Below, piece after piece: positions 2,519 through 35,570 of a DNA stretch of 64,000 nt; the first letter of the stretch is position 1; the number at the start of each line of letters is the position of its first letter. Position numbers and translations under genes: made by a program. The stretch lies in the IMG/VR virus record IMGVR_UViG_3300045988_009603, one strand, 5' to 3'. The notes below the pieces were generated by a model. It was given only the letters and a program-made list of their open reading frames with translations, ran no database searches and was not told the origin of the DNA. The DNA comes from a virus. Taxonomy: Duplodnaviria; Heunggongvirae; Uroviricota; Caudoviricetes.

Positions 2519-2983
2519 TTAACTGAGGACTTTAGCAAGGACATTTGCAGCCATCGAAGAAGCTTTTGCAGCAGCAGCTACCCCAGCTTTGACAGTGCTA
2601 TCCTTAATAGCAGATACCGTTGCAGCATCAGTAAAGAGATAAGTAGTTGTTTTATAACCACTTGTAAAGGAAAGCATAAGAGCAGTTTCCAGATTGAAAG
2701 AGCGATACGGAGCACCTTCTTTAACGATACCTTCAGCACCTAACTCTGAAGCCATACCCATATCATAGATAGTCATCAGGTTTTCTTTGTGTGCAGTCGT
2801 TGAACCAGCACCTTTGACGTGTTTCTTAACATTCAGAAGAGCACGGTATTCTCGGATGTTACCGTCTGCTTTTACATTGACAGCACGGAAGATTTTACCC
2901 TCAAAGTTGCTTTTGATAATGTTACGAACTACTTCAGATTTGTTTGCCGTAACGTCCAGTGCTACCGTAATGATATTGTTCAT
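2519..2983 (-). CDS. hypothetical protein
   Basis: ORF 2519..2998 in track; start probably at second Met (MNNIITVALDV). Confidence 0.35.
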   Translation of the reverse strand: MNNIITVALDVTANKSEVVRNIIKSNFEGKIFRAVNVKADGNIREYRALLNVKKHVKGAGSTTAHKENLMTIYDMGMASELGAEGIVKEGAPYRSFNLETALMLSFTSGYKTTTYLFTDAATVSAIKDSTVKAGVAAAAKASSMAANVLAKVLS

Positions 2984-2994
2984 AAGTTTTTCTC

Positions 2995-3690
2995 TCAATG
3001 TTTAACTAACATGGTTTTAATGTGTGGAAGGATTCTGTTTACCTTCTGAACATTCTTCTCTGTATCTTCTATAAAGCATACTATATTAAAGTAAGGAAGA
3101 ATGCAAGACTGAATCATCCTAACTTTTAAACTTTCTGCACTTATAGAGTTAGTTCCAAAACCACGCATGAAAAGCATGTAATCATGCTCTATGTTATGCC
3201 TTAAAAACATCTCAGTAGGTATTCTCTGAGATTCACCTCTTGCTGTCAAGAGTCCAATGGCAGCATGATTAGCAATTGCATCAATAATACTAAAAACATA
3301 CGTTGGTTTTGCTCTTACAGAGTCAAGAAGATTAGTGTACTGTGAGAATGACCCATCAGTCAATTCCGTTGAGCAATCTTCGTGATTAAAATTTGTAAGA
3401 ACACCATCAATATCTGCTAAGATGAGGTTACCTTTTTCTACAAGGTCTTTATTGACTATGACTAAACTGTCACGTCTTACACCTACAGTTTGTCCAGTCT
3501 CTTTGTCCACAACGTTCACAATTGGTTGTGATGTGTGGAACTCTTCAAGTGAACATACAACTTCTCTTGCAGTGTCTTCAAAATCCCTGCACTGTTCTGG
3601 AGTCCATATACAGGAATCAAGACCTAACTCATGAGGATGCAAGTCGTAAGCATGACACAGTACTTCATCAGACTTTCTTAATTTTTTCAT
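2995..3690 (-). CDS. HAD-superfamily phosphatase-like protein (possible nucleotidase)
   Basis: Motif LILADIDGVLTNF (DxDG HAD motif I) and downstream GLLTARGE; N-terminal ~90 aa unassigned. Confidence 0.4.
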   Translation of the reverse strand: MKKLRKSDEVLCHAYDLHPHELGLDSCIWTPEQCRDFEDTAREVVCSLEEFHTSQPIVNVVDKETGQTVGVRRDSLVIVNKDLVEKGNLILADIDGVLTNFNHEDCSTELTDGSFSQYTNLLDSVRAKPTYVFSIIDAIANHAAIGLLTARGESQRIPTEMFLRHNIEHDYMLFMRGFGTNSISAESLKVRMIQSCILPYFNIVCFIEDTEKNVQKVNRILPHIKTMLVKH

Positions 3691-4317: not shown

Positions 4318-5427
4318 TTAGATTTCACGTTTACGTTGAGAAATGAGTTCACCAGCAGTACCAACGATGACATGCAAAGCTTCAGTCTTACCATCCCACG
4401 CTTTCAGCACTTTACGCTGATTATCAACGATTGCTGCAACTTCATAACGGGATGAACGCATCTTCATATCGTTGTAATCAGTTGGAACAGATACAACATC
4501 TCGTGGATGGACACGAACCTTCAGGATTGTATCACCTGAGAAGCAACGAACATAATCCCAAGCACCAACATGAAGACCCTGAGAGCAAGTTACGTTACGG
4601 TTGTTATCAACCATCCAACGTGGCATTTCTACAATATTACCTAAATCATTAGGTACTTTATAGGTGTGGGAGTCAACCAACTTGCCTTCACGAGTAGAGA
4701 CTTTCTTCCAACCAATGATGTAACCTTCTTCATCAATTTCAACATCAAGGTGAGATACGAATCCCCAAAGTTGTTCTACAGAATCTTTAGATGGGTTTTC
4801 CATCAGTTTTTCGAAGAACATTACAAGTCGTTCAAAACCTTTATCACCAGTCTTCATCATGTGAAGAATACGGTCAACCAGAGTAGAACGCATCTCAACA
4901 GCACCGTAGAATAACTTGTCACCTTTGATTGTGATAGCACCCTGAGTGAAGTTTTCGATAGACTTACGAATGTTCATCAGTTCAAAAGCTTTCTTGTACT
5001 CACCACCTACAACAGCCATTACGATTTCTTTGTAGTTTGGATGGGTAGACTCAACGATTTCAGAATCTGCACCGAAAGTCATGATAACAGAATCGCCAGT
5101 AATCATATACTCAATCTGGTTACCATTCTGCATAGCTTCGTGTAGTTTATTTACTGGAGCTTCCTGTACAGCCTCTTTAACAACCTTTTCAACTGGTTTT
5201 CCAGCTTTCTTTTTAACTGATTTAGCAACTTGCTTCAAAGTCTTCGTAGCTGGTTTAGAAGCTACCTTTTTCTTACCTTTTAAGGTTGCTTCATGACGCT
5301 CTACAGCACGACCAACTGAACGGGTTGAAGTATTGAACTTCTGTGCAATAGCTGTTTTAGTCAGCTTACCTTCTTTCACCAGTTCGTAAATTTCTGCGTC
5401 AATCTGTGCTTTAGTTTTAATAGTCAT
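4318..5427 (-). CDS. rIIB: rIIB-like protein
   Basis: Call rests on position immediately downstream of the rIIA-like gene and similar size; no diagnostic motif recognised. Confidence 0.4.
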   Translation of the reverse strand: MTIKTKAQIDAEIYELVKEGKLTKTAIAQKFNTSTRSVGRAVERHEATLKGKKKVASKPATKTLKQVAKSVKKKAGKPVEKVVKEAVQEAPVNKLHEAMQNGNQIEYMITGDSVIMTFGADSEIVESTHPNYKEIVMAVVGGEYKKAFELMNIRKSIENFTQGAITIKGDKLFYGAVEMRSTLVDRILHMMKTGDKGFERLVMFFEKLMENPSKDSVEQLWGFVSHLDVEIDEEGYIIGWKKVSTREGKLVDSHTYKVPNDLGNIVEMPRWMVDNNRNVTCSQGLHVGAWDYVRCFSGDTILKVRVHPRDVVSVPTDYNDMKMRSSRYEVAAIVDNQRKVLKAWDGKTEALHVIVGTAGELISQRKREI

Positions 5428-14759: not shown

Positions 14760-15317
14760 TTATTTTTTCTTACAATTGTCAAAATGATATCGAGTCATGT
14801 TACCAGCACCACCAGTCATACCACAATGAGGGCAAGTTTTCTTTTTCTTTGGCTTTTTTCCGGCTTCTGACATCTTCTTCCTTGTTTCTATAGACCTTTT
14901 ACAACCTTTTGATTTTGTATTGCCTATTTGAGATTCTCCTAACCGTCTTCGATGTTCTTCAGTGAAAACCCTACCTTTATTCACAATAGATAGAGCTTTC
15001 GAGTTCAAAGCCCTTACCTTTTCATAGTCTCTGGATGATATTTTCCTATCTAGGCCATCATGGGCTAACCTGTTCCATGCAAACCATAACTTATGATTGT
15101 TTGGATACATCTTAACCAGTAATTTATGAGCTATATAATGCTCTCTAGGTGTAAGTAAAGCAATATTATCTCCACTAATTTTATCGCCACCTAGACATAC
15201 TGGTGTGATATGGTGTCTTTCATAACCCTTACCTTGACATTTGTAGTATGTAAGAGGCACACCCCTTTCAGAATGTGCCTTCTTAATAATTGCATTATAT
15301 ATTAGTTCGTAATTCAT
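14760..15317 (-). CDS. free-standing HNH homing endonuclease
   Basis: HNH core ERHHITPVCLGGDKISGDNIALLTPREHYIAH; Lys-rich C-terminus with CPHCG; alternative start at 15368 overlaps nrdD 3' end. Confidence 0.6.
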   Translation of the reverse strand: MNYELIYNAIIKKAHSERGVPLTYYKCQGKGYERHHITPVCLGGDKISGDNIALLTPREHYIAHKLLVKMYPNNHKLWFAWNRLAHDGLDRKISSRDYEKVRALNSKALSIVNKGRVFTEEHRRRLGESQIGNTKSKGCKRSIETRKKMSEAGKKPKKKKTCPHCGMTGGAGNMTRYHFDNCKKK

Positions 15318-15324
15318 TTGTATG

Positions 15325-16272
15325 CTACATAGAAACCCTATCCTTAATTTCTGCCATCTTAGCGTCATTCATTCGAGACTGACCTTTAATTTTTGTGAAT
15401 GACAAGTACCCGCACACCCTGTTAATCACAGAGATGTCATGTGAATGGCAAACCTCACATTCTTCAACATCAGCCTTTGGTCTGTTACCACAATGTTCAC
15501 AGATTGCTAAGTCAAAGTTAAGTCCCTGATAGAAGCCTTTCAACATCCCTCTTGTAATACAACTTTTAAGTGCTGGTAAGTTTTCTGGGTTAGCTACCCT
15601 TACATACTGGATTCTGCCACCTCTACAAATATGGAAGAATGGTTCTTCTAAGTCCTGCTTCTCAAATGGTGAGATATCTGCTGCAACATTCATATGAAAA
15701 CTGTTTGTAAAGTATTCCTTATCAGAAACACCTTTGATAACGCCAAACATATCTCTGAACTGTTTTAGTTGAGTCCCACAAAGTGATTCTGCTGGAGTAC
15801 CATATACCGCATATAAGAAGCCATCTTCATTCTTAAACTCTTCAGTTTTCATGTTAATGTATGCCAGAACATCGTATGCAAAACTACAGCTTCCAACTTC
15901 ATGAAGTCGTTTACCCTCAGCAAGAACAGATAACTCATCAAGCGCAGTAACACCAAAAGAAGCTGTGAAAGACTTCACAATATCCCAGCCAACCTTGTCA
16001 GTAGGTTTCTTAGTCCCTTTGTACAGACCACCTTGTGTGAATGCAAGAGGGTTAGAGCTTGCTGGCATATTAGCAATCATTTCGTAGCGTTTCTTGTGGA
16101 AGCTGCGAATCATCTCTAGGTACTTATCAAGCTCTTTCCAGAAATCTAAGCCATTCTCTTTAGAATACTGGTAAATCATTGGTAAGTTCAAAGATACAGC
16201 ACCAATGTTAGCACGACCTACATAAAACTCTTCACCATCTTCGTTATGGTATGGTGATAAAAACGCTCTACA
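15325..16272 (-). CDS. nrdD: anaerobic ribonucleoside-triphosphate reductase, exon 2
   Basis: Glycyl-radical motif RVCGYLS and C-terminal Zn site CEHCGN...CEVCH; frame is open upstream of the tracked start back to the proposed 3' splice site. Confidence 0.7.
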   Translation of the reverse strand, partial: CRAFLSPYHNEDGEEFYVGRANIGAVSLNLPMIYQYSKENGLDFWKELDKYLEMIRSFHKKRYEMIANMPASSNPLAFTQGGLYKGTKKPTDKVGWDIVKSFTASFGVTALDELSVLAEGKRLHEVGSCSFAYDVLAYINMKTEEFKNEDGFLYAVYGTPAESLCGTQLKQFRDMFGVIKGVSDKEYFTNSFHMNVAADISPFEKQDLEEPFFHICRGGRIQYVRVANPENLPALKSCITRGMLKGFYQGLNFDLAICEHCGNRPKADVEECEVCHSHDISVINRVCGYLSFTKIKGQSRMNDAKMAEIKDRVSM

Positions 16273-17014
16273 CTTGTTGTTCAGGTAAGTTCGCTACGCT
16301 TACCCCGCTTTATTCAAGCTGCTTACTGTCACCAGTAAGTCCAGACTATATCTTCTACTTATTTCTAAGTAGCGTACCATTTCGAGTCGCTTGACCCTAC
16401 ACCGCTACATTCATCACGGTTAGTCGTTTGGCATTTAGATGTACTCAAATTCATGTTCAAAGTTATTATATTCTTTTACACCCTTCAGTATTGAAGAGAT
16501 AGTCTTGCGATTATACCCAAGTATCTTGGATAACTCTCGTATCGAGTTCGCAACAATAACTTCTTTTGTTACTTTGTGTGTAGCCTTCACAGCATATGAA
16601 CGCTTACAAAACTTGTAGCAACCATTCTCATAACCTTCTTTAACATTCTCAGAATGAGTTCCCCATTCTAAGTTAGAAGCATGGTTATTCAGTTTGTTGT
16701 CATCTTTGTGTTTTACAATTGGAAGATTGTTCGGGTTAGGTACATATTTCTCAGCAACTAACCTATGAACATACATGTCACGATTCTTCTTACCGTAAAA
16801 CCTCACTTTCATATACCCAGTGTTGGATTTCCACTGCTTAAGTTCTACACCATTTTTCCTAAAGACTCTTCCATCTTCAGTAACATGATAATTTGGCATG
16901 TAATACTCCTATGTTATATAGTTTCTTACATCGTACATCATTTAGCACAGGATTGTCTACATCTGTAGAGTTTCCCTGTTTAGGCACGTTTTAGATGAGC
17001 TATAGAGCTTGTTA
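16273..17014 (-). mobile_element. group I intron in nrdD carrying an HNH endonuclease ORF
   Basis: Minus-strand P-like (AAACAGGGAAAC), Q-like (AATCCTGTG), S-like (AGATATAGTC) elements; P1 pairing exon ATGGGT with intron GCTCAT giving U.G at the 5' splice site; intron ends in G; spliced junction reads ...ISPMG|CRAFLSPY... Confidence 0.65.
16435..16899 (-). CDS. intron-encoded HNH-type homing endonuclease
   Basis: Motif HRLVAEKYVPNPNNLPIVKHKDDNKLNNHASNLEWGTHSEN; located between intron Q and R elements. Confidence 0.65.
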   Translation of the reverse strand: MPNYHVTEDGRVFRKNGVELKQWKSNTGYMKVRFYGKKNRDMYVHRLVAEKYVPNPNNLPIVKHKDDNKLNNHASNLEWGTHSENVKEGYENGCYKFCKRSYAVKATHKVTKEVIVANSIRELSKILGYNRKTISSILKGVKEYNNFEHEFEYI

Positions 17015-31151: not shown

Positions 31152-31407
31152 GTAAGCCTCTTTTAAGTAACTATTAAGTTTTAATCTTTTATCTTAACGT
31201 ATTCTATACGTTATACTTTAAAGCTTTTTAAAAGCTATTAAATAATCTTTTAAGAGTTTTAAAGTAACTGTATAGTTAAACTGTTAAGTAACCTTTTAAG
31301 TAAAAACCCACTTCGCAAAGATTAACACCTTGTCAAGTACATTGTCAACTTGCTTTTTATAATTTTTTGCAGTAATGTATGAGGTTAATGAATTAGAGGG
31401 AGTACAA

Positions 31408-33550
31408 ATGGAAAACGTAGATTTTAAAAACTTACACTTAGTTGGTGATACAGAAACTGATGGTTTACTCCTTGAGTTCACTAAAGTCCACGTCATGGCT
31501 TTCGCAGACTATAAATCTGACGATGAAGAGCCACCTGTATGGGTCTTTACAGATGAGCCTATCCTCGGTCACAAGTATACCAAGTACATTAAAGGTGGTT
31601 TGCGTGAAGGTATTGAGTTTGCGTTAAAGGCAAAACGGCTTTGCATCCATAATGGTCTGGGGTATGACTGGTGGGTTTTCAATCACATTGCACCTGATTT
31701 GTGGAACTTTGATAATCCAAAGTGTAAGCCGTGGAGTAATTTCTTTCAGGATTCTCTTATCCAGTCTCGTGTTCAGTGGATGGATAGACCAACTCCAAAA
31801 GGCTATAAAGGTGCTCATGGCTTGGCAGCATGGGGTGCTCGTGTTGGTGTACGTAAACCAGAGATTGAACATTGGGGTGTGTGGAATGCAGAAATCTTCA
31901 CTCGTGTTGTAGAGGATATCCGTATTAACGCCAAAACTAAACGAGCACTGGATAATGAATATCTCAAGTTAAAGAAGTGTGGTATAGACACTTATGAAAC
32001 CTATATGCGAGCTAAAGAGACATCTTTCTGGATGAGTCAACAAGCTATTAATGGTTGGAAAGCTGATAAGGAGCTTATGGAGTTCCATGTAAAGGAACTT
32101 GACAAGTTGACTAATGAGCTTGCTTCAGAAGTTGAACCACACCTTCCACCAACTATTAAGACCAAAGGTAAAGTCACTGGAGAAGAGTTTGCAAAAGCTT
32201 GGAATGAGTATGTTGAAGCGTTTGGTCATGCAGATGGACTGAAAAGAATTACCAAGTACCCTAAGACAAAGTATCGTCAGCAGGTACGTAACGGTGAGAT
32301 GCAGACATATGAAATCAAGCCATTTGGTAAGCCAACTACAAAGATTTTTAACATTGAAAAGCGGAATTGCTATACACCAACCAACACTGTAACTGGCGAA
32401 GAGTACAAAGAAGGTTTTGTAGCAATGAAGGATGCTCGTGCAATTTGCAATGAGTTGAATGCAAAGATTGGTAAGAAATGCAAAGACTGGAAGCCAGTAA
32501 AAACAGTCAAAACTGTGAAGTACTATAACAGTCACGTTGTTAACCACTTTGAACTTGAGTCAAGTCGCTACACAGGATTGATTGATGCACCATATACACC
32601 AATTGAGTTTGAAGTTTCTCGTATGACTCAGGTAGCAGTTGTTAAAGACTACTTGAAATCAGTTGGTTGGATTCCAGATGACTGGAACTACAAGAAAGAC
32701 TCAGACGGTCGCCCTGTCAAAGTTTGTCGTTTCAAAGACAATAAAAAGATGATTACAAAGCATCCTAAGTGGCAGGAGATGGTTGAGCGTTGTGGATTGA
32801 GCTATGTTGAACATGAAGGTGTACAGTACATTGAGCATAACTGGTCTGTGAAGAAGTACACAGATTTGCTTGAACCTTGTCTGATTAGGACTTCACCAAA
32901 ACTTACTGAATCATCTTATGATACGATTGAAGGTGAGCTTGGACAGAAGATTGCTAAGTACTACACTTTGATGCACCGACGCAGAACTATTGAGAACTCA
33001 AAGGATGATGAAAAAGGTTGGTTGAACCAGATTCGTCCTGATGGTCGCCTTAGTGCTGGCGCAATGGTGTTTGGTACTTCAACTGGACGTATGACACAAT
33101 ATGGTATTGTAAACGTACCGTCTGGCGCTGCTGTCTATGGAGCACCCATGAGGGAAGTTTGGACTTGTGAAGAGGGTACTAATATTGTTTCAGCCGACAT
33201 GAATAGCGCCCAACTTGTGCTACTGTGTAACTTTATGGGTGATAAAGATTTCACTAAAGCGGTGACAGAGGGTAAAGAAGAGGTTGAGTTTGTTAAACAA
33301 GATGATGGTAGATACTATTGCAAACATTTTGACCAGTATCTAAACCCAGCTATTGACAAGTATTTACATTATGATTCGGAAAATGACTTATACGTGGTGT
33401 ACTCAGGGACTGATGCACATACTTTAAATAGTATCTACTTCAGTCTTAATAAAGAGGAAGACATCTTGACGTGTCGAGCTACTCAGGATACAAATCTTCT
33501 TCAAGAAATTAGTAAAGGTCGTAAGAAAGCCAAAAATGGCATTTATGCGT
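31408..33550 (+). CDS. DNA polymerase (family A), exon 1
   Basis: GAGGGAG RBS before ATG 31408; 3'-5' exo motif VGDTETDGL; motif A IVSADMNSAQL; start of motif B RKKAKNGIYA; exon end set by intron P1 pairing. Confidence 0.75.
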
Positions 33551-34354
33551 CAGTGGCGCATGTAAAACGTTGTGAATTGCTGGAAGCCTAAGTCTGTAAA
33601 GATATGGTAATCAGCAGCGAAGTCTCTGTTAGGACTCCTAAAACAAAGGAGAGAGAGACAATGGCAGGTTACGAAGAGAGATTATGCACTGAGTGTGGCA
33701 CGGAGTTTAAACCATACCAATACAATCAGAAACGGTGCAGAAGCTGTGTATTAAAATTTGACAGAAGGGCAGAACACAGGGTTCTTACTAAGAAATGCCC
33801 TAGCTGCGAGAAGGTGTTCATGCCGAGAACAGCAAGGCAAGTTTATTGCTCTTCACATTGCGGTGAGAAAGGTAGAGTTAAAAATTACTACCTAAGAACA
33901 TATGGCTTGGAAAGGGAAGAGGTTGAAGCTCTACTCCGCAACTGTGATTACAAATGTCAAATTTGTGGCGGTGAAGGTTTTATCATGAATGGTTCACGAC
34001 ACAAGGCTAAACTTGTTGTTGACCATGACCACAAAACCGGAAAGGTAAGAGGTATGCTATGCCACAATTGCAACAGAGCTTTGGGGTTGCTTGCAGATAG
34101 CGTTGATAATATGCAAAGAGCAATTGACTACCTAAGCAAATAATATAATTGTAGAGATTCCTAACAGAGAAACGTTCAGAGACTATCGAAAAGCATACTT
34201 AACGTATGAACTGAGTAGAGTAGGGTGGTAAGCTAATGACCATCCCCAAGTGCAACGGTAGCACCAATGCTACGTGATATAGTCCGACACTCCGTAGAAA
34301 TGCGGAGAAGTTCATAAGAGAACTGGTACACCTTGCGAGTGTATTGACCAGATG
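33551..34354 (+). mobile_element. group I intron in DNA polymerase gene with HNH endonuclease ORF
   Basis: P (GAATTGCTGGAA 33574-85), Q (AATCAGCAGC 33609-18), R (GTTCAGAGACTA 34174-85), S (GATATAGTCC 34276-85); P1 exon ATGCGT pairs intron GCGCAT; ends in G 34354; exon lengths sum to 2700 nt. Confidence 0.75.
33661..34143 (+). CDS. intron-encoded HNH endonuclease
   Basis: AAGGAGAGAG RBS; Cys-rich N-terminus; VVDHDHKTGKVRGMLCHNCNRALG HNH core. Confidence 0.7.
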   Translation: MAGYEERLCTECGTEFKPYQYNQKRCRSCVLKFDRRAEHRVLTKKCPSCEKVFMPRTARQVYCSSHCGEKGRVKNYYLRTYGLEREEVEALLRNCDYKCQICGGEGFIMNGSRHKAKLVVDHDHKTGKVRGMLCHNCNRALGLLADSVDNMQRAIDYLSK

Positions 34355-34911
34355 TATTGTTCGGGGCTGGCGATGAGAAATTTGCTAAGACGATTAAAGC
34401 ATCTACAACTGAGGAAGGTGCTTTAACTAAGCAAACATACTTTGTACGCCTCCCTAAAATTAAGAAGTTGATAGATGATTTAGAAGCAGACTTCAAAGCC
34501 ACTAAGAAGGCTCTTGAAGAGGTATTTGGTAAGACTGCTGCAATCTCTAAAGGGGGGTTTGTAAAGGTTGCTGGAGCTTGGTTGTGGTGCAAATCTCCAC
34601 ATAAGTTATTGAATTATTTGCTCATGGGTTCGGAAAGTCAGGTTCAGAATGAAGCCATCAACCTTGCTTGTAGAAGAACTTGTGAAGAAGGTCTTACAAA
34701 GTTGAATGGTCGAAAACCAGCTATTGGTGCTAGATTGCTTTTGGCATATCACGATGAGAATAGTTGGGAGTGTCCAGAAGACATGACGCAGGATGTTAAA
34801 GCAGTAATTGACTGGATGTATGGTCAAGCATCAAGAAATTTAGGGCTTAAGGAGGAAACTCTTGTAACTGGCACTGGTAAAGTTGGTAAAAATTGGCTTG
34901 AGGTACACTGA
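34355..34911 (+). CDS. DNA polymerase (family A), exon 2
   Basis: Completes motif B (LFGAGDEKFAKTI) and carries motif C YHDE; tracked ORF at 34357 begins on a TTG, not an independent gene. Confidence 0.75.
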
Positions 34912-34917
34912 TTAGTA

Positions 34918-34946
34918 TTGACAAGGTGCTCATGGAAGAGTACCTT
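34918..34946 (+). promoter_or_regulatory. possible sigma70-like promoter (TTGACA-N17-TACCTT)
   Basis: Perfect -35 hexamer, weak -10, upstream of gene at 34973. Confidence 0.25.
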
Positions 34947-34972
34947 ATACAATATCTTATATAGGAGGGCTT

Positions 34973-35182
34973 ATGAGCCACCGTGGAAGAACCCATGCAG
35001 CGATGATGAAAGGTGCTTCAAAGGAAACTATCAAGAATCGTAAACAGAAGTTGTTTGAGAGGATGAACAGGTTAATTGACAATTCATCTCTGTCAGGTTC
35101 TGAGAAGGTTTTCTTGAAAGGTAATCTGAAAAGCATTGCACAAGAGCTTATTGATATTGAATATTGGAGACACCAAAAATGA
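34973..35182 (+). CDS. hypothetical protein
   Basis: 69 aa; AGGAGG RBS. Confidence 0.4.
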   Translation: MSHRGRTHAAMMKGASKETIKNRKQKLFERMNRLIDNSSLSGSEKVFLKGNLKSIAQELIDIEYWRHQK

Positions 35183-35397
35183 AACTTGCAGATGTTATCC
35201 AACAACTTCACGACAACTGCTACACTCCAGAGTTGATTCAAGAGATGCTTATTGTGGTGATGCCTAGTAAGTTCTTAAAAGGTTTTAATCGTGAGGCTTT
35301 AAAGGTCGCGCATATCCTTATCGTTGACGGTAAGATTGCAAGAGACCGTACAGGTGTTCTTAAGGGTGAACGTATTGATATCTTGGAATTGCTATGA
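35179..35397 (+). CDS. hypothetical protein
   Basis: Start at ATG 35179 (GGAGA RBS); overlaps upstream stop. Confidence 0.4.
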   Translation: MKLADVIQQLHDNCYTPELIQEMLIVVMPSKFLKGFNREALKVAHILIVDGKIARDRTGVLKGERIDILELL

Positions 35398-35570
35398 ATA
35401 AGTTATATAGTCTCTGGGGAAGGATGGGTAAAGATTCTGACTGGAATCTGCTCAAAACAAATGTAAAAAGTAATGAGATAGCGTACTACAAAATTCATTA
35501 CTACAAAACTTTCAGAGAGCTTGAGTATCGTGAACAACAGACAGGAGAAGTATTATGTGGAAATCAGTAA
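35394..35570 (+). CDS. hypothetical small protein
   Basis: 58 aa ORF below track cutoff; ATGA start/stop overlap with upstream gene. Confidence 0.3.
   Translation: MNKLYSLWGRMGKDSDWNLLKTNVKSNEIAYYKIHYYKTFRELEYREQQTGEVLCGNQ

Follow-up and report, generated by a model that had tools for sequence, protein, structure and literature searches.

Self-splicing group I introns carrying endonuclease open reading frames (ORFs) have been described in the family A DNA polymerase genes of phages SPO1, SP82, Bastille and Pf-WMP3 (I-HmuI, I-HmuII, I-BasI and I-PfoP3I; PMC3428280), and the polymerase intron sites known in 2012 correspond to positions 674, 676 and 881 of the Escherichia coli enzyme (PMC3428280). 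The T7-like phages PhiI and W31 have introns of subgroup IA2 in a family A polymerase gene, which encode I-TslI in an ORF within P6a and splice both in vivo and in vitro (Bonocora and Shub 2004, as relayed in PMC3428280). The polymerase introns of the Yersinia phages Berlin and YpP-G and the Pseudomonas phage LUZ24 contain ORFs with an Endonuclease VII (Endo VII) motif, and Fang et al. (2018) described the Endo VII-motif proteins of phages JH2, EC6 and FSL SP-010 as intron-encoded (PMC6083498). For Felix O1 itself, no introns were reported when its genome was published (PMC3185647). The DNA analysed here, hereafter the window, is a stretch of 64,000 nucleotides from the virus record IMGVR_UViG_3300045988_009603 (Caudoviricetes). 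Its positions 33551-34354 are very probably a group I intron with IA2-type architecture, self-splicing and mobile, which interrupts the gene for a family A DNA polymerase in a Felixounavirus.

Megablast searches with 33000-35000 and 20000-44000 returned about 260 phage records, nearly all of them Felixounavirus, which identified the source as a Felix O1-like phage of this genus. Felixounavirus comprises the Felix O1-like myoviruses of Salmonella and E. coli. The closest relatives in these searches were Salmonella phage BPS15Q2 (95.7% identity over 24 kb) and Escherichia phage JH2, and by this similarity the window is taken to be a further strain beside BPS15Q2. The element itself occurs with 97-99% identity in many Felixounavirus genomes of GenBank and is already known at the bioinformatic level, having been noted in two earlier studies (PMC6486253, PMC6083498). 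The locus is usually annotated in the matched records as 'DNA polymerase', 'endonuclease VII' and 'DNA polymerase'.

Splice junction and ribozyme core

A split of the polymerase inside motif B had been proposed from the letters of the sequence, and the protein comparisons agree with it. Joining the two exons (Table 1) gives 2700 nt in frame with one terminal stop, and the product contains RKKAKNGIYALLFGAGDEK. When the joined protein was compared with solved structures, T7 DNA polymerase 517-701 aligned straight across the junction (RDNAKTFIYGFLYGAGDEK), with GRKKAKNGIYALLFGAGDEKFAK opposite TRDNAKTFIYGFLYGAGDEKIGQ at that point. The exons meet at T7 G527/F528, after the first nucleotide of the codon equivalent to F528, and thus within the O-helix, which carries K522 and Y526 there; motif B is intact in the spliced product, aligned with T7 R518-K522-Y526. 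The insertion site corresponds to about E. coli position 764. Intron-less alleles of four relatives (LMP33, UAB_Phi87, typing phage 1 and HY02; 4/4) encode KNGIYALLFGAGDEK uninterrupted. The sequence ...IYALLFGAG... is restored by one junction only, at which a U precedes the 5' splice site and a G precedes the 3' splice site, and the predicted ligated-exon junction reads ...TATGCGT/TATTGTT..., that is, ATTTATGCGT/TATTGTTCGG. The polymerase start at ATG 31408 is preceded by GAGGGAG; an alternative in-frame ATG at 31375 lacks a Shine-Dalgarno sequence. The unspliced exon 1 frame enters the insert for 41 nt, to TAA 33589-33591, and an intein was rejected because in-frame stops begin at this distance.

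These data also bear on a different account, in which the polymerase consists of two polypeptides that assemble without RNA splicing, the interruption being simply an inserted endonuclease gene. Many deposited genomes do annotate two polymerase coding sequences (CDSs) plus an endonuclease, and the ORF listing made without splicing contains polymerase frames of 738 and 184 aa. However, the break lies inside the O-helix, and the sole start of the second frame is TTG 34357, with no Shine-Dalgarno-like sequence upstream. Moreover, the unjoined halves reach 17.9 and 26.8 bits on Pfam DNA_pol_A, each under the threshold of 34.3, whereas the joined protein reaches 57.9 bits, its best stretch (residues 680-896) spanning the junction at 714/715. 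What flanks the ORF is a conserved ribozyme core, and ORF-less copies of the element, in which this core passes Rfam, make no sense under a gene insertion. Two separately made polypeptides are thus a very improbable explanation, and the intron remains the preferred reading of the insert.

The core elements P, Q, R and S (GAATTGCTGGAA at 33574, AATCAGCAGC at 33609, GTTCAGAGACTA at 34174 and GATATAGTCC at 34276) occur in the order originally predicted, are each unique in the window, and line up with the consensus of the Rfam group I model RF00028. The predicted insert length of 804 nt, its last base, G34354, and the pairing of the exon 1 end ATGCGT (ending at 33550) with GCGCAT at 33556-33561 were likewise recovered; the U-G wobble at the 5' splice site is U33550-G33556, and the Rfam alignment of the Meda intron has the same P1 pairing. 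The P3/P7 pseudoknot and the core helices P3-P9 all form without a mismatch, and base-by-base verification of the 16 proposed helices found standard pairs only, Watson-Crick or G-U, in all of them (16/16). P7 is composed of 34179 and 34181-34185 paired with 34280-34285, with G34179-C34285 closing the helix and A34180 bulged. A bulge next to a G-C pair in P7 is the arrangement of the guanosine site in Tetrahymena, and by this analogy G34181-C34284 beside A34180 is the candidate guanosine-binding pair. P2 is absent. The hallmark of subgroup IA2 is the presence of P7.1 and P7.2 between P7 and P3', linked by G-U-A, and P7.1/P7.2 without P2 is the IA2 pattern given for the Pf-WMP3, PhiI and W31 polymerase introns (PMC3428280). 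By this helix criterion (P7.1, P7.2 and GUA; no P2) the window intron is assigned to IA2. A basal extension of P7.1 (34186-34188 with 34212-34214) pairs in the window and not in the related intron L042, as judged by eye, and is uncertain. The P10 helix is a candidate proposed from complementarity.

The Rfam group I scan suggested in the original prediction gave a divided outcome: ORF-less orthologues of the intron pass, but the window's own copy yields only partial matches. One of these covers P4-P6 (33578-33670) at 24.1 bits, with an E-value of about 1e-3 in a 1.1-kb scan and 0.057 for the whole window; the other covers S-P9 (34276-34305) at 12.3 bits and, with an E-value of 3.3, is not significant alone. 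The curated threshold of RF00028 is 50 bits, and the orthologous introns of Meda and Mushroom, which lack the ORF, match the full model with 62.4 and 62.3 bits, respectively (E about 1e-14). If P6 and the P8 loop are set aside, the core of the window does not differ from that of Meda and is identical or nearly so to Mushroom's. The low score of the window is attributable to the 483-nt ORF in the P6a loop, and since ORF-less copies with the same core pass, the window core is taken to be a bona fide RF00028 core. A group II intron and a plain insertion of a free-standing endonuclease gene were both ruled out by the RF00028 match of the orthologues together with the group I helices. The intron-bearing relatives are, furthermore, cultured phage isolates, which need a working polymerase, and the intron is therefore presumably removed.

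Comparative data support the helices. A scan of viral contigs for the Q...R...S pattern found at least 120 loci, and per-sequence helix extraction from 11 related introns gave the same helix set built from differing sequences: P3, for example, is CGUUGUG/UGCAACG in the window, CCCAUUG/CGGUGGG in L042, UGUGGUG/UGCCACA in L092 and CUGUGUG/CGCACAG in the intron of Pseudomonas phage JHP (L007). Closer to the window, Meda has a short P6 hairpin and a compensatory change from U-A to C-G, and P8 of Mushroom is GUAGUA/UACUAC instead of GUAGCA/UGCUAC, again a compensatory change. A plain MAFFT alignment of the 11 divergent introns misaligned P7.1 to P8 and was excluded from pair counting; it was replaced by the per-sequence extraction and by a covariance-model alignment of the 3' domain. 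The covariance model was built on 34174-34308 and gave 56 matches, of which 50 distinct rows were counted. Covariation was counted for this 3' domain, and P3, P4, P5 and P6 rest on the pair check and the 11 relatives. Among the 50 introns, 96.3% of the cells were paired, compared with 66.5% after shuffling and 31-45% when the partner was slid. Both sides had changed in 25 of the 31 pairs, including 5/5 in P7.1, 6/7 in P7.2, 6/6 in P8 and 7/7 in P9, and the covariation score was 0.432 versus 0.099, a value reached by none of 500 shuffles. The G34181-C34284 pair was invariant and P7 nearly so overall, as is expected of a catalytic core.

Table 1. Coordinates of the polymerase exons, the predicted intron with its helices and ORF, and the nrdD exons in the window (a slash in a sequence marks a junction or separates the two strands of a helix)
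Feature	Position	Strand	Details
Exon 1, family A DNA polymerase	31408-33550	+	714 codons plus 1 nt; ends ...AAA AAT GGC ATT TAT GCG T
Predicted group I intron	33551-34354	+	804 nt; IA2-type (P7.1 and P7.2, no P2); ends in omega G34354
Exon 2, polymerase	34355-34911	+	2 nt plus 184 codons plus stop
P1	33544-33562	+	exon UAUGCGU 33544-33550 with guide GCGCAUG 33556-33562; 7/7 pairs; loop CAGUG
P3	33568-33574 with 34251-34257	+	CGUUGUG with UGCAACG; 7 bp
P4 (elements P, Q)	33578-33583 with 33611-33616	+	within 33577-33616; encloses P5 and P5a
P5	33586-33588 with 33606-33608	+	
P5a	33592-33595 with 33600-33603	+	GUAA tetraloop
P6	33617-33618 with 34174-34175	+	
P6a	33623-33634 with 34159-34170	+	5' strand UCUCUGUUAGGA; 12/12 Watson-Crick pairs
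Hairpin over the ORF Shine-Dalgarno sequence	33635-33651	+	CUCCU/AGGAG; AAGGAG at 33646-33651; minimum-energy local fold, z = -2.0
Intron ORF	33661-34143	+	160 aa, 483 nt; ATG 33661 to TAA; follows AAGGAG
Element R and P7 5' strand	34174-34185	+	GACUA pairs with UAGUC 34280-34284
P7.1	34194-34198 with 34204-34208	+	
P7.2	34223-34229 with 34239-34245	+	GUA 34220-34222 directly 5'
P8	34258-34273	+	hairpin GUAGCA/UGCUAC
Element S and P7 3' strand	34276-34285	+	GAUAUAGUCC
P9	34290-34307	+	GAAA tetraloop
P9.1	34309-34324	+	GUUCAUAAGAGAAC
P9.2	34325-34345	+	alternative register UGGU/ACCA, by eye
P10, candidate	33551-33555 with 34355-34359	+	intron CAGUG with exon 2 UAUUG; 3 Watson-Crick and 2 G-U pairs
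nrdD exons	18211-17015 and 16272-15325	-	join in frame to 714 aa, ...SPMG/CRAFLSP...

The intron-encoded endonuclease and polymorphism within the genus

The ORF between elements Q and R sits wholly in the terminal loop of the 12-bp P6a. Its start agrees with that of the CDS annotated in relatives; an upstream in-frame ATG at 33604 was rejected, being located within P5/P4 and lacking a Shine-Dalgarno sequence. The label 'HNH endonuclease' in the original prediction needs refinement, since Endonuclease_7 takes the place of a classical Pfam HNH domain. The Pfam scan of the ORF at E <= 0.01 returned Endonuclease_7 and two zinc-ribbon models only, and no HNH model. The Endonuclease_7 match covers residues 79-159 with 71.7 bits against a cut-off of 23.6 (E 4.6e-20), and matches in the PDB were to Hpy99I (1.2e-5, a local alignment) and T4 endonuclease VII (6e-3). 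The C-terminal half of the protein accordingly carries an Endonuclease VII-type catalytic domain, CQIC...DHDH...R...CHNCN (CQIC...VVDHDHKTGKVRGMLCHNCN). The residues CxxC, D-H-(D)-H, R, CxxC and N define the DHHRN homing endonucleases, whose founding member, F-CphI, has been characterised experimentally (PMC6083498), and the DHHRN catalytic and zinc residues are all present in the ORF translation. The N-terminal half contains two zinc-ribbon-like CxxC...CxxC repeats, presumably for DNA binding. Judged by these motifs, the ORF product is an Endonuclease VII / DHHRN-type homing endonuclease within the wider His-Me finger group.

The hairpin over the Shine-Dalgarno sequence of the ORF is stacked on P6a, and similar CCUU...AAGG pairings occur at the same place in the related introns of JHP and of the T7-like Yersinia phage AKS2022HT54F_phi (L006); this hairpin probably limits translation of the ORF. 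In the local fold, the purine run AGAGAGAGAC ahead of the ATG can instead pair with the P6a 5' strand, and ribozyme folding and ORF translation might compete. Scanning 33300-34600 for promoters and terminators gave no sites, which leaves an internal sigma-70 promoter for the ORF unsupported; the enzyme is therefore probably made in small amounts, with either the polymerase transcript or the excised intron serving as its message.

Searching with the ORF-deleted intron retrieved 123 phage records. By rough count, about 40 of the approximately 260 records contain the intron with the ORF and about 55 contain it without, and the rest are intron-less; the occurrence of all three forms in one genus is the pattern expected of a homing element. 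The ORF-less forms at this site are 311 nt long (Mushroom, NS7, warpig and NJ12) or 268 nt long (Meda and many others). The Mushroom form (L004, 1001-1311) equals the window intron minus about 494 nt between the CCTAA repeats at 33637-33641 and 34131-34135, and it keeps the last ORF codons, AGC AAA TAA, so that a microhomology deletion evidently removed the ORF. In the 268-nt Meda form, P6 is a clean short hairpin, and nothing of the ORF is left. All of the intron-bearing alleles examined read GCGT/TATTG at the junction, even that of Meda, whose exons are 66-80% identical near the site. Intron-less alleles read GCAC/TGCTG or GCCC/TGTTA, both synonymous with GCGT/TATTG; in LMP33, UAB_Phi87 and Felix O1, for example, the junction is ...TATGCAC/TGCTGTTC.... 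The nucleotides that distinguish intron-bearing from intron-less alleles are exactly those of P1 and P10, and they may distinguish a cleavable target from an immune allele. In comparisons of the window with LMP33, Mushroom and Meda, exon identity falls from about 95% to about 78% (66-87%) from about 400 nt 5' of the intron through exon 2, which makes the locus a recombination mosaic with the intron site at its centre, as would be expected where homing occurs.

The endonuclease allele of SPT-1 (L131, 289-1092) is only 79% identical to the window's in protein and 73% in DNA, with 50% identity at third codon positions and a saturated proportion of synonymous differences (pS) of 0.80; the ratio of the non-synonymous to the synonymous proportion (pN/pS) is 0.16, which indicates purifying selection. 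The SPT-1 ribozyme, by contrast, is identical to the window's in its 5' part up to the P6a loop and 96% identical over its 181-nt 3' domain, and this suggests that ORF and ribozyme have partly separate histories. We consider it possible, though as a tentative proposal, that the ribozyme and the endonuclease gene have separate histories and that the element family has also been re-targeted within the polymerase O-helix; stronger constraint or repeated gene conversion acting on the ribozyme would be an alternative explanation for a diverged ORF in a conserved ribozyme. The loss of the ORF from Mushroom-type copies and the related intron located 11 nt upstream in T7-like phages (see below) also belong to the basis of this proposal. 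If the modular history is correct, Felixounavirus would offer a natural series for endonuclease invasion, swapping and loss in a fixed ribozyme, and re-targeting, if real, would extend the series to how Endo VII-type enzymes shift their target sites.

The same distribution has to be weighed against an intron that splices but whose endonuclease serves no classical homing, being inactive or serving some other purpose, for instance attack on the polymerase gene of competitor phages in the same cell or assistance in RNA folding, with inheritance mostly vertical. That roughly half of the intron-bearing relatives keep the intron without the ORF would fit this account, as would the sequestered ribosome-binding site of the ORF and the lack of an internal sigma-70 promoter in the scan. 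Nevertheless, the ORF is intact and retains its catalytic motif, and it has a pN/pS of 0.16 with saturated synonymous divergence. The patchy distribution and the exon mosaicism round the site fit mobility, and activity as a homing endonuclease has been shown by experiment for the related F-CphI (PMC6083498). This account is thus unlikely, and a mobile intron is the reading followed below.

Proposed pathway, annotation and a second intron in nrdD

Beyond the sequence, structure, covariation, junction and polymorphism observed above, we infer the splicing chemistry, the activity and target of the endonuclease, homing and translational control. The polymerase gene would be transcribed through the intron, and the RNA would fold into P1-P9, the 5' exon end UAUGCGU pairing with the guide GCGCAUG. 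The intron would excise itself by two transesterifications initiated by guanosine. A free guanosine docked in P7, at G34181-C34284 beside the bulged A34180, would attack after U33550; the terminal G34354 would then occupy the same site, and the freed exon 1 would attack after G34354 while P10 holds exon 2. The ligated mRNA would encode an 899-aa polymerase with an intact O-helix (RKKAKNGIYALLFGAGDEK). In mixed infections, the endonuclease would most likely cut intron-less polymerase alleles near the insertion site, and repair templated by the intron-bearing genome would transfer the intron along with adjoining exon sequence.

Several points weigh against the reading as a mobile, self-splicing intron. 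In the papers found, no experiment demonstrated that a Felixounavirus copy splices or homes. The alignment used for covariation was made to fit the model structure and is hence biased towards it, and P7 and P4 hardly vary and so are uninformative on covariation. The candidate P10 is a short helix to which the intron contributes its first five nucleotides. Finally, the window itself has no match to Rfam at the gathering threshold, the support coming from orthologues and the manual structure. This last result would also suit a decayed, non-functional intron remnant or an assembly artefact. Against that, an element of 802-805 nt with 95-99% identity is present in about 40 independently sequenced phages, no helix contains a mismatch, and the polymerase is essential and the intron-bearing relatives have been cultured; a remnant or artefact is hardly conceivable.

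Recognition of the intron has consequences for annotation. In most deposited Felixounavirus genomes the polymerase is split into two separate CDSs and is not given as one spliced gene, and relatives often show it as two fragments plus 'endonuclease VII'; the gene should be annotated as one joined CDS (31408-33550 plus 34355-34911). The intron ORF of phage Si3 (L002, RefSeq NC_041922, 2093-2854) is intact yet unannotated. A free-standing HNH endonuclease gene lies directly 3' of the polymerase in several relatives (L003, 2468-2980; L004, 1855 onwards; L005, 1825 onwards; L002, 3568-3921), and the corresponding part of the window (34912-35400) holds small ORFs only and no such gene.

The same correction is needed for nrdD, the gene for anaerobic ribonucleotide reductase, in which a second group I intron of 742 nt was found on the minus strand at window positions 16273-17014. 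It matches the full RF00028 model with 35.4 bits at 16322-16502 (E 2.4e-5), has a possible P1 formed by AUGGGU with GCUCAU, and ends in G16273. An ORF of 154 aa (16435-16899) that matches HNH_3 sits in its P6 region, and for Meda an HNH gene has been noted to interrupt nrdD. Directly 3' of nrdD, at 14760-15368 on the minus strand, lies a 202-aa ORF with a NUMOD3 motif and HNH-like sequence.

The polymerase element adds an example to the well-understood mobile group I introns that target the most conserved segments of essential phage genes, and it raises no new question. Its modest value comes from a natural polymorphism that is represented by many genomes of a genus employed in phage typing and biocontrol. 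Alleles without the intron, two forms without the ORF and two diverged alleles of the endonuclease co-occur in this genus, and the polymorphism could serve the study of the life cycle of homing elements and of marker exclusion between co-infecting phages.

Comparison with known systems

The closest counterparts are the copies in other Felixounavirus genomes: JH2, BPS15Q2, EC6, FSL SP-010, VpaE1, Meda and Mushroom share the gene and the insertion point with the window, and relative to it the Felixounavirus copies are 93-99% identical in the ribozyme core and up to 99% identical in the endonuclease.

Outside the genus, a related intron is found in the polymerase O-helix of AKS2022HT54F_phi (about 2820-3496), which serves here as a proxy for Berlin and YpP-G. 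Its 144-aa Endo VII-type ORF lies in the P6a loop and encodes a protein 51% identical to the window's, and the P9.1 sequence GUUCAUAAGAGAAC is common to both introns. However, its splice point, after the TT of a Phe codon (RDNAKTF/IYGFLYGAG), is 11 nt upstream of the window's, and the end of its ORF overlaps the P6a 3' strand, unlike that of the window. JHP, a LUZ24-like phage, has another related intron (39 bits), and its endonuclease is 41% identical to the window's. Both introns share P7.1 and P7.2 and the ORF in the P6a loop with the window.

The PhiI and W31 introns differ in being inserted at E. coli Pol I position 881, in motif C, whereas the window's site is in motif B, and their enzyme is described as belonging to the HNH family (PMC3428280). 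A related ORF-less intron of IA2 type was observed at motif C (...VISW / ...DEFTVEC) of a family A polymerase on an IMG/VR viral contig (L102, about 4640-4830); motif B (FLFGAG) is intact upstream, and the site is the one reported for PhiI and W31. The Pf-WMP3 intron resembles the window's in belonging to IA2, lacking P2 and carrying its ORF in P6a. Unlike the window's, however, the introns of SPO1, SP82, Bastille and Pf-WMP3 are inserted at position 674, in another part of the fingers domain, and they encode HNH endonucleases that nick DNA and belong to a different subfamily (PMC3428280). F-CphI of cyanophage S-PM2 has the same catalytic motif as the window ORF, with 33% identity over 96% of the length, but it is free-standing beside the psbA intron, whereas the window's enzyme is encoded inside the intron.

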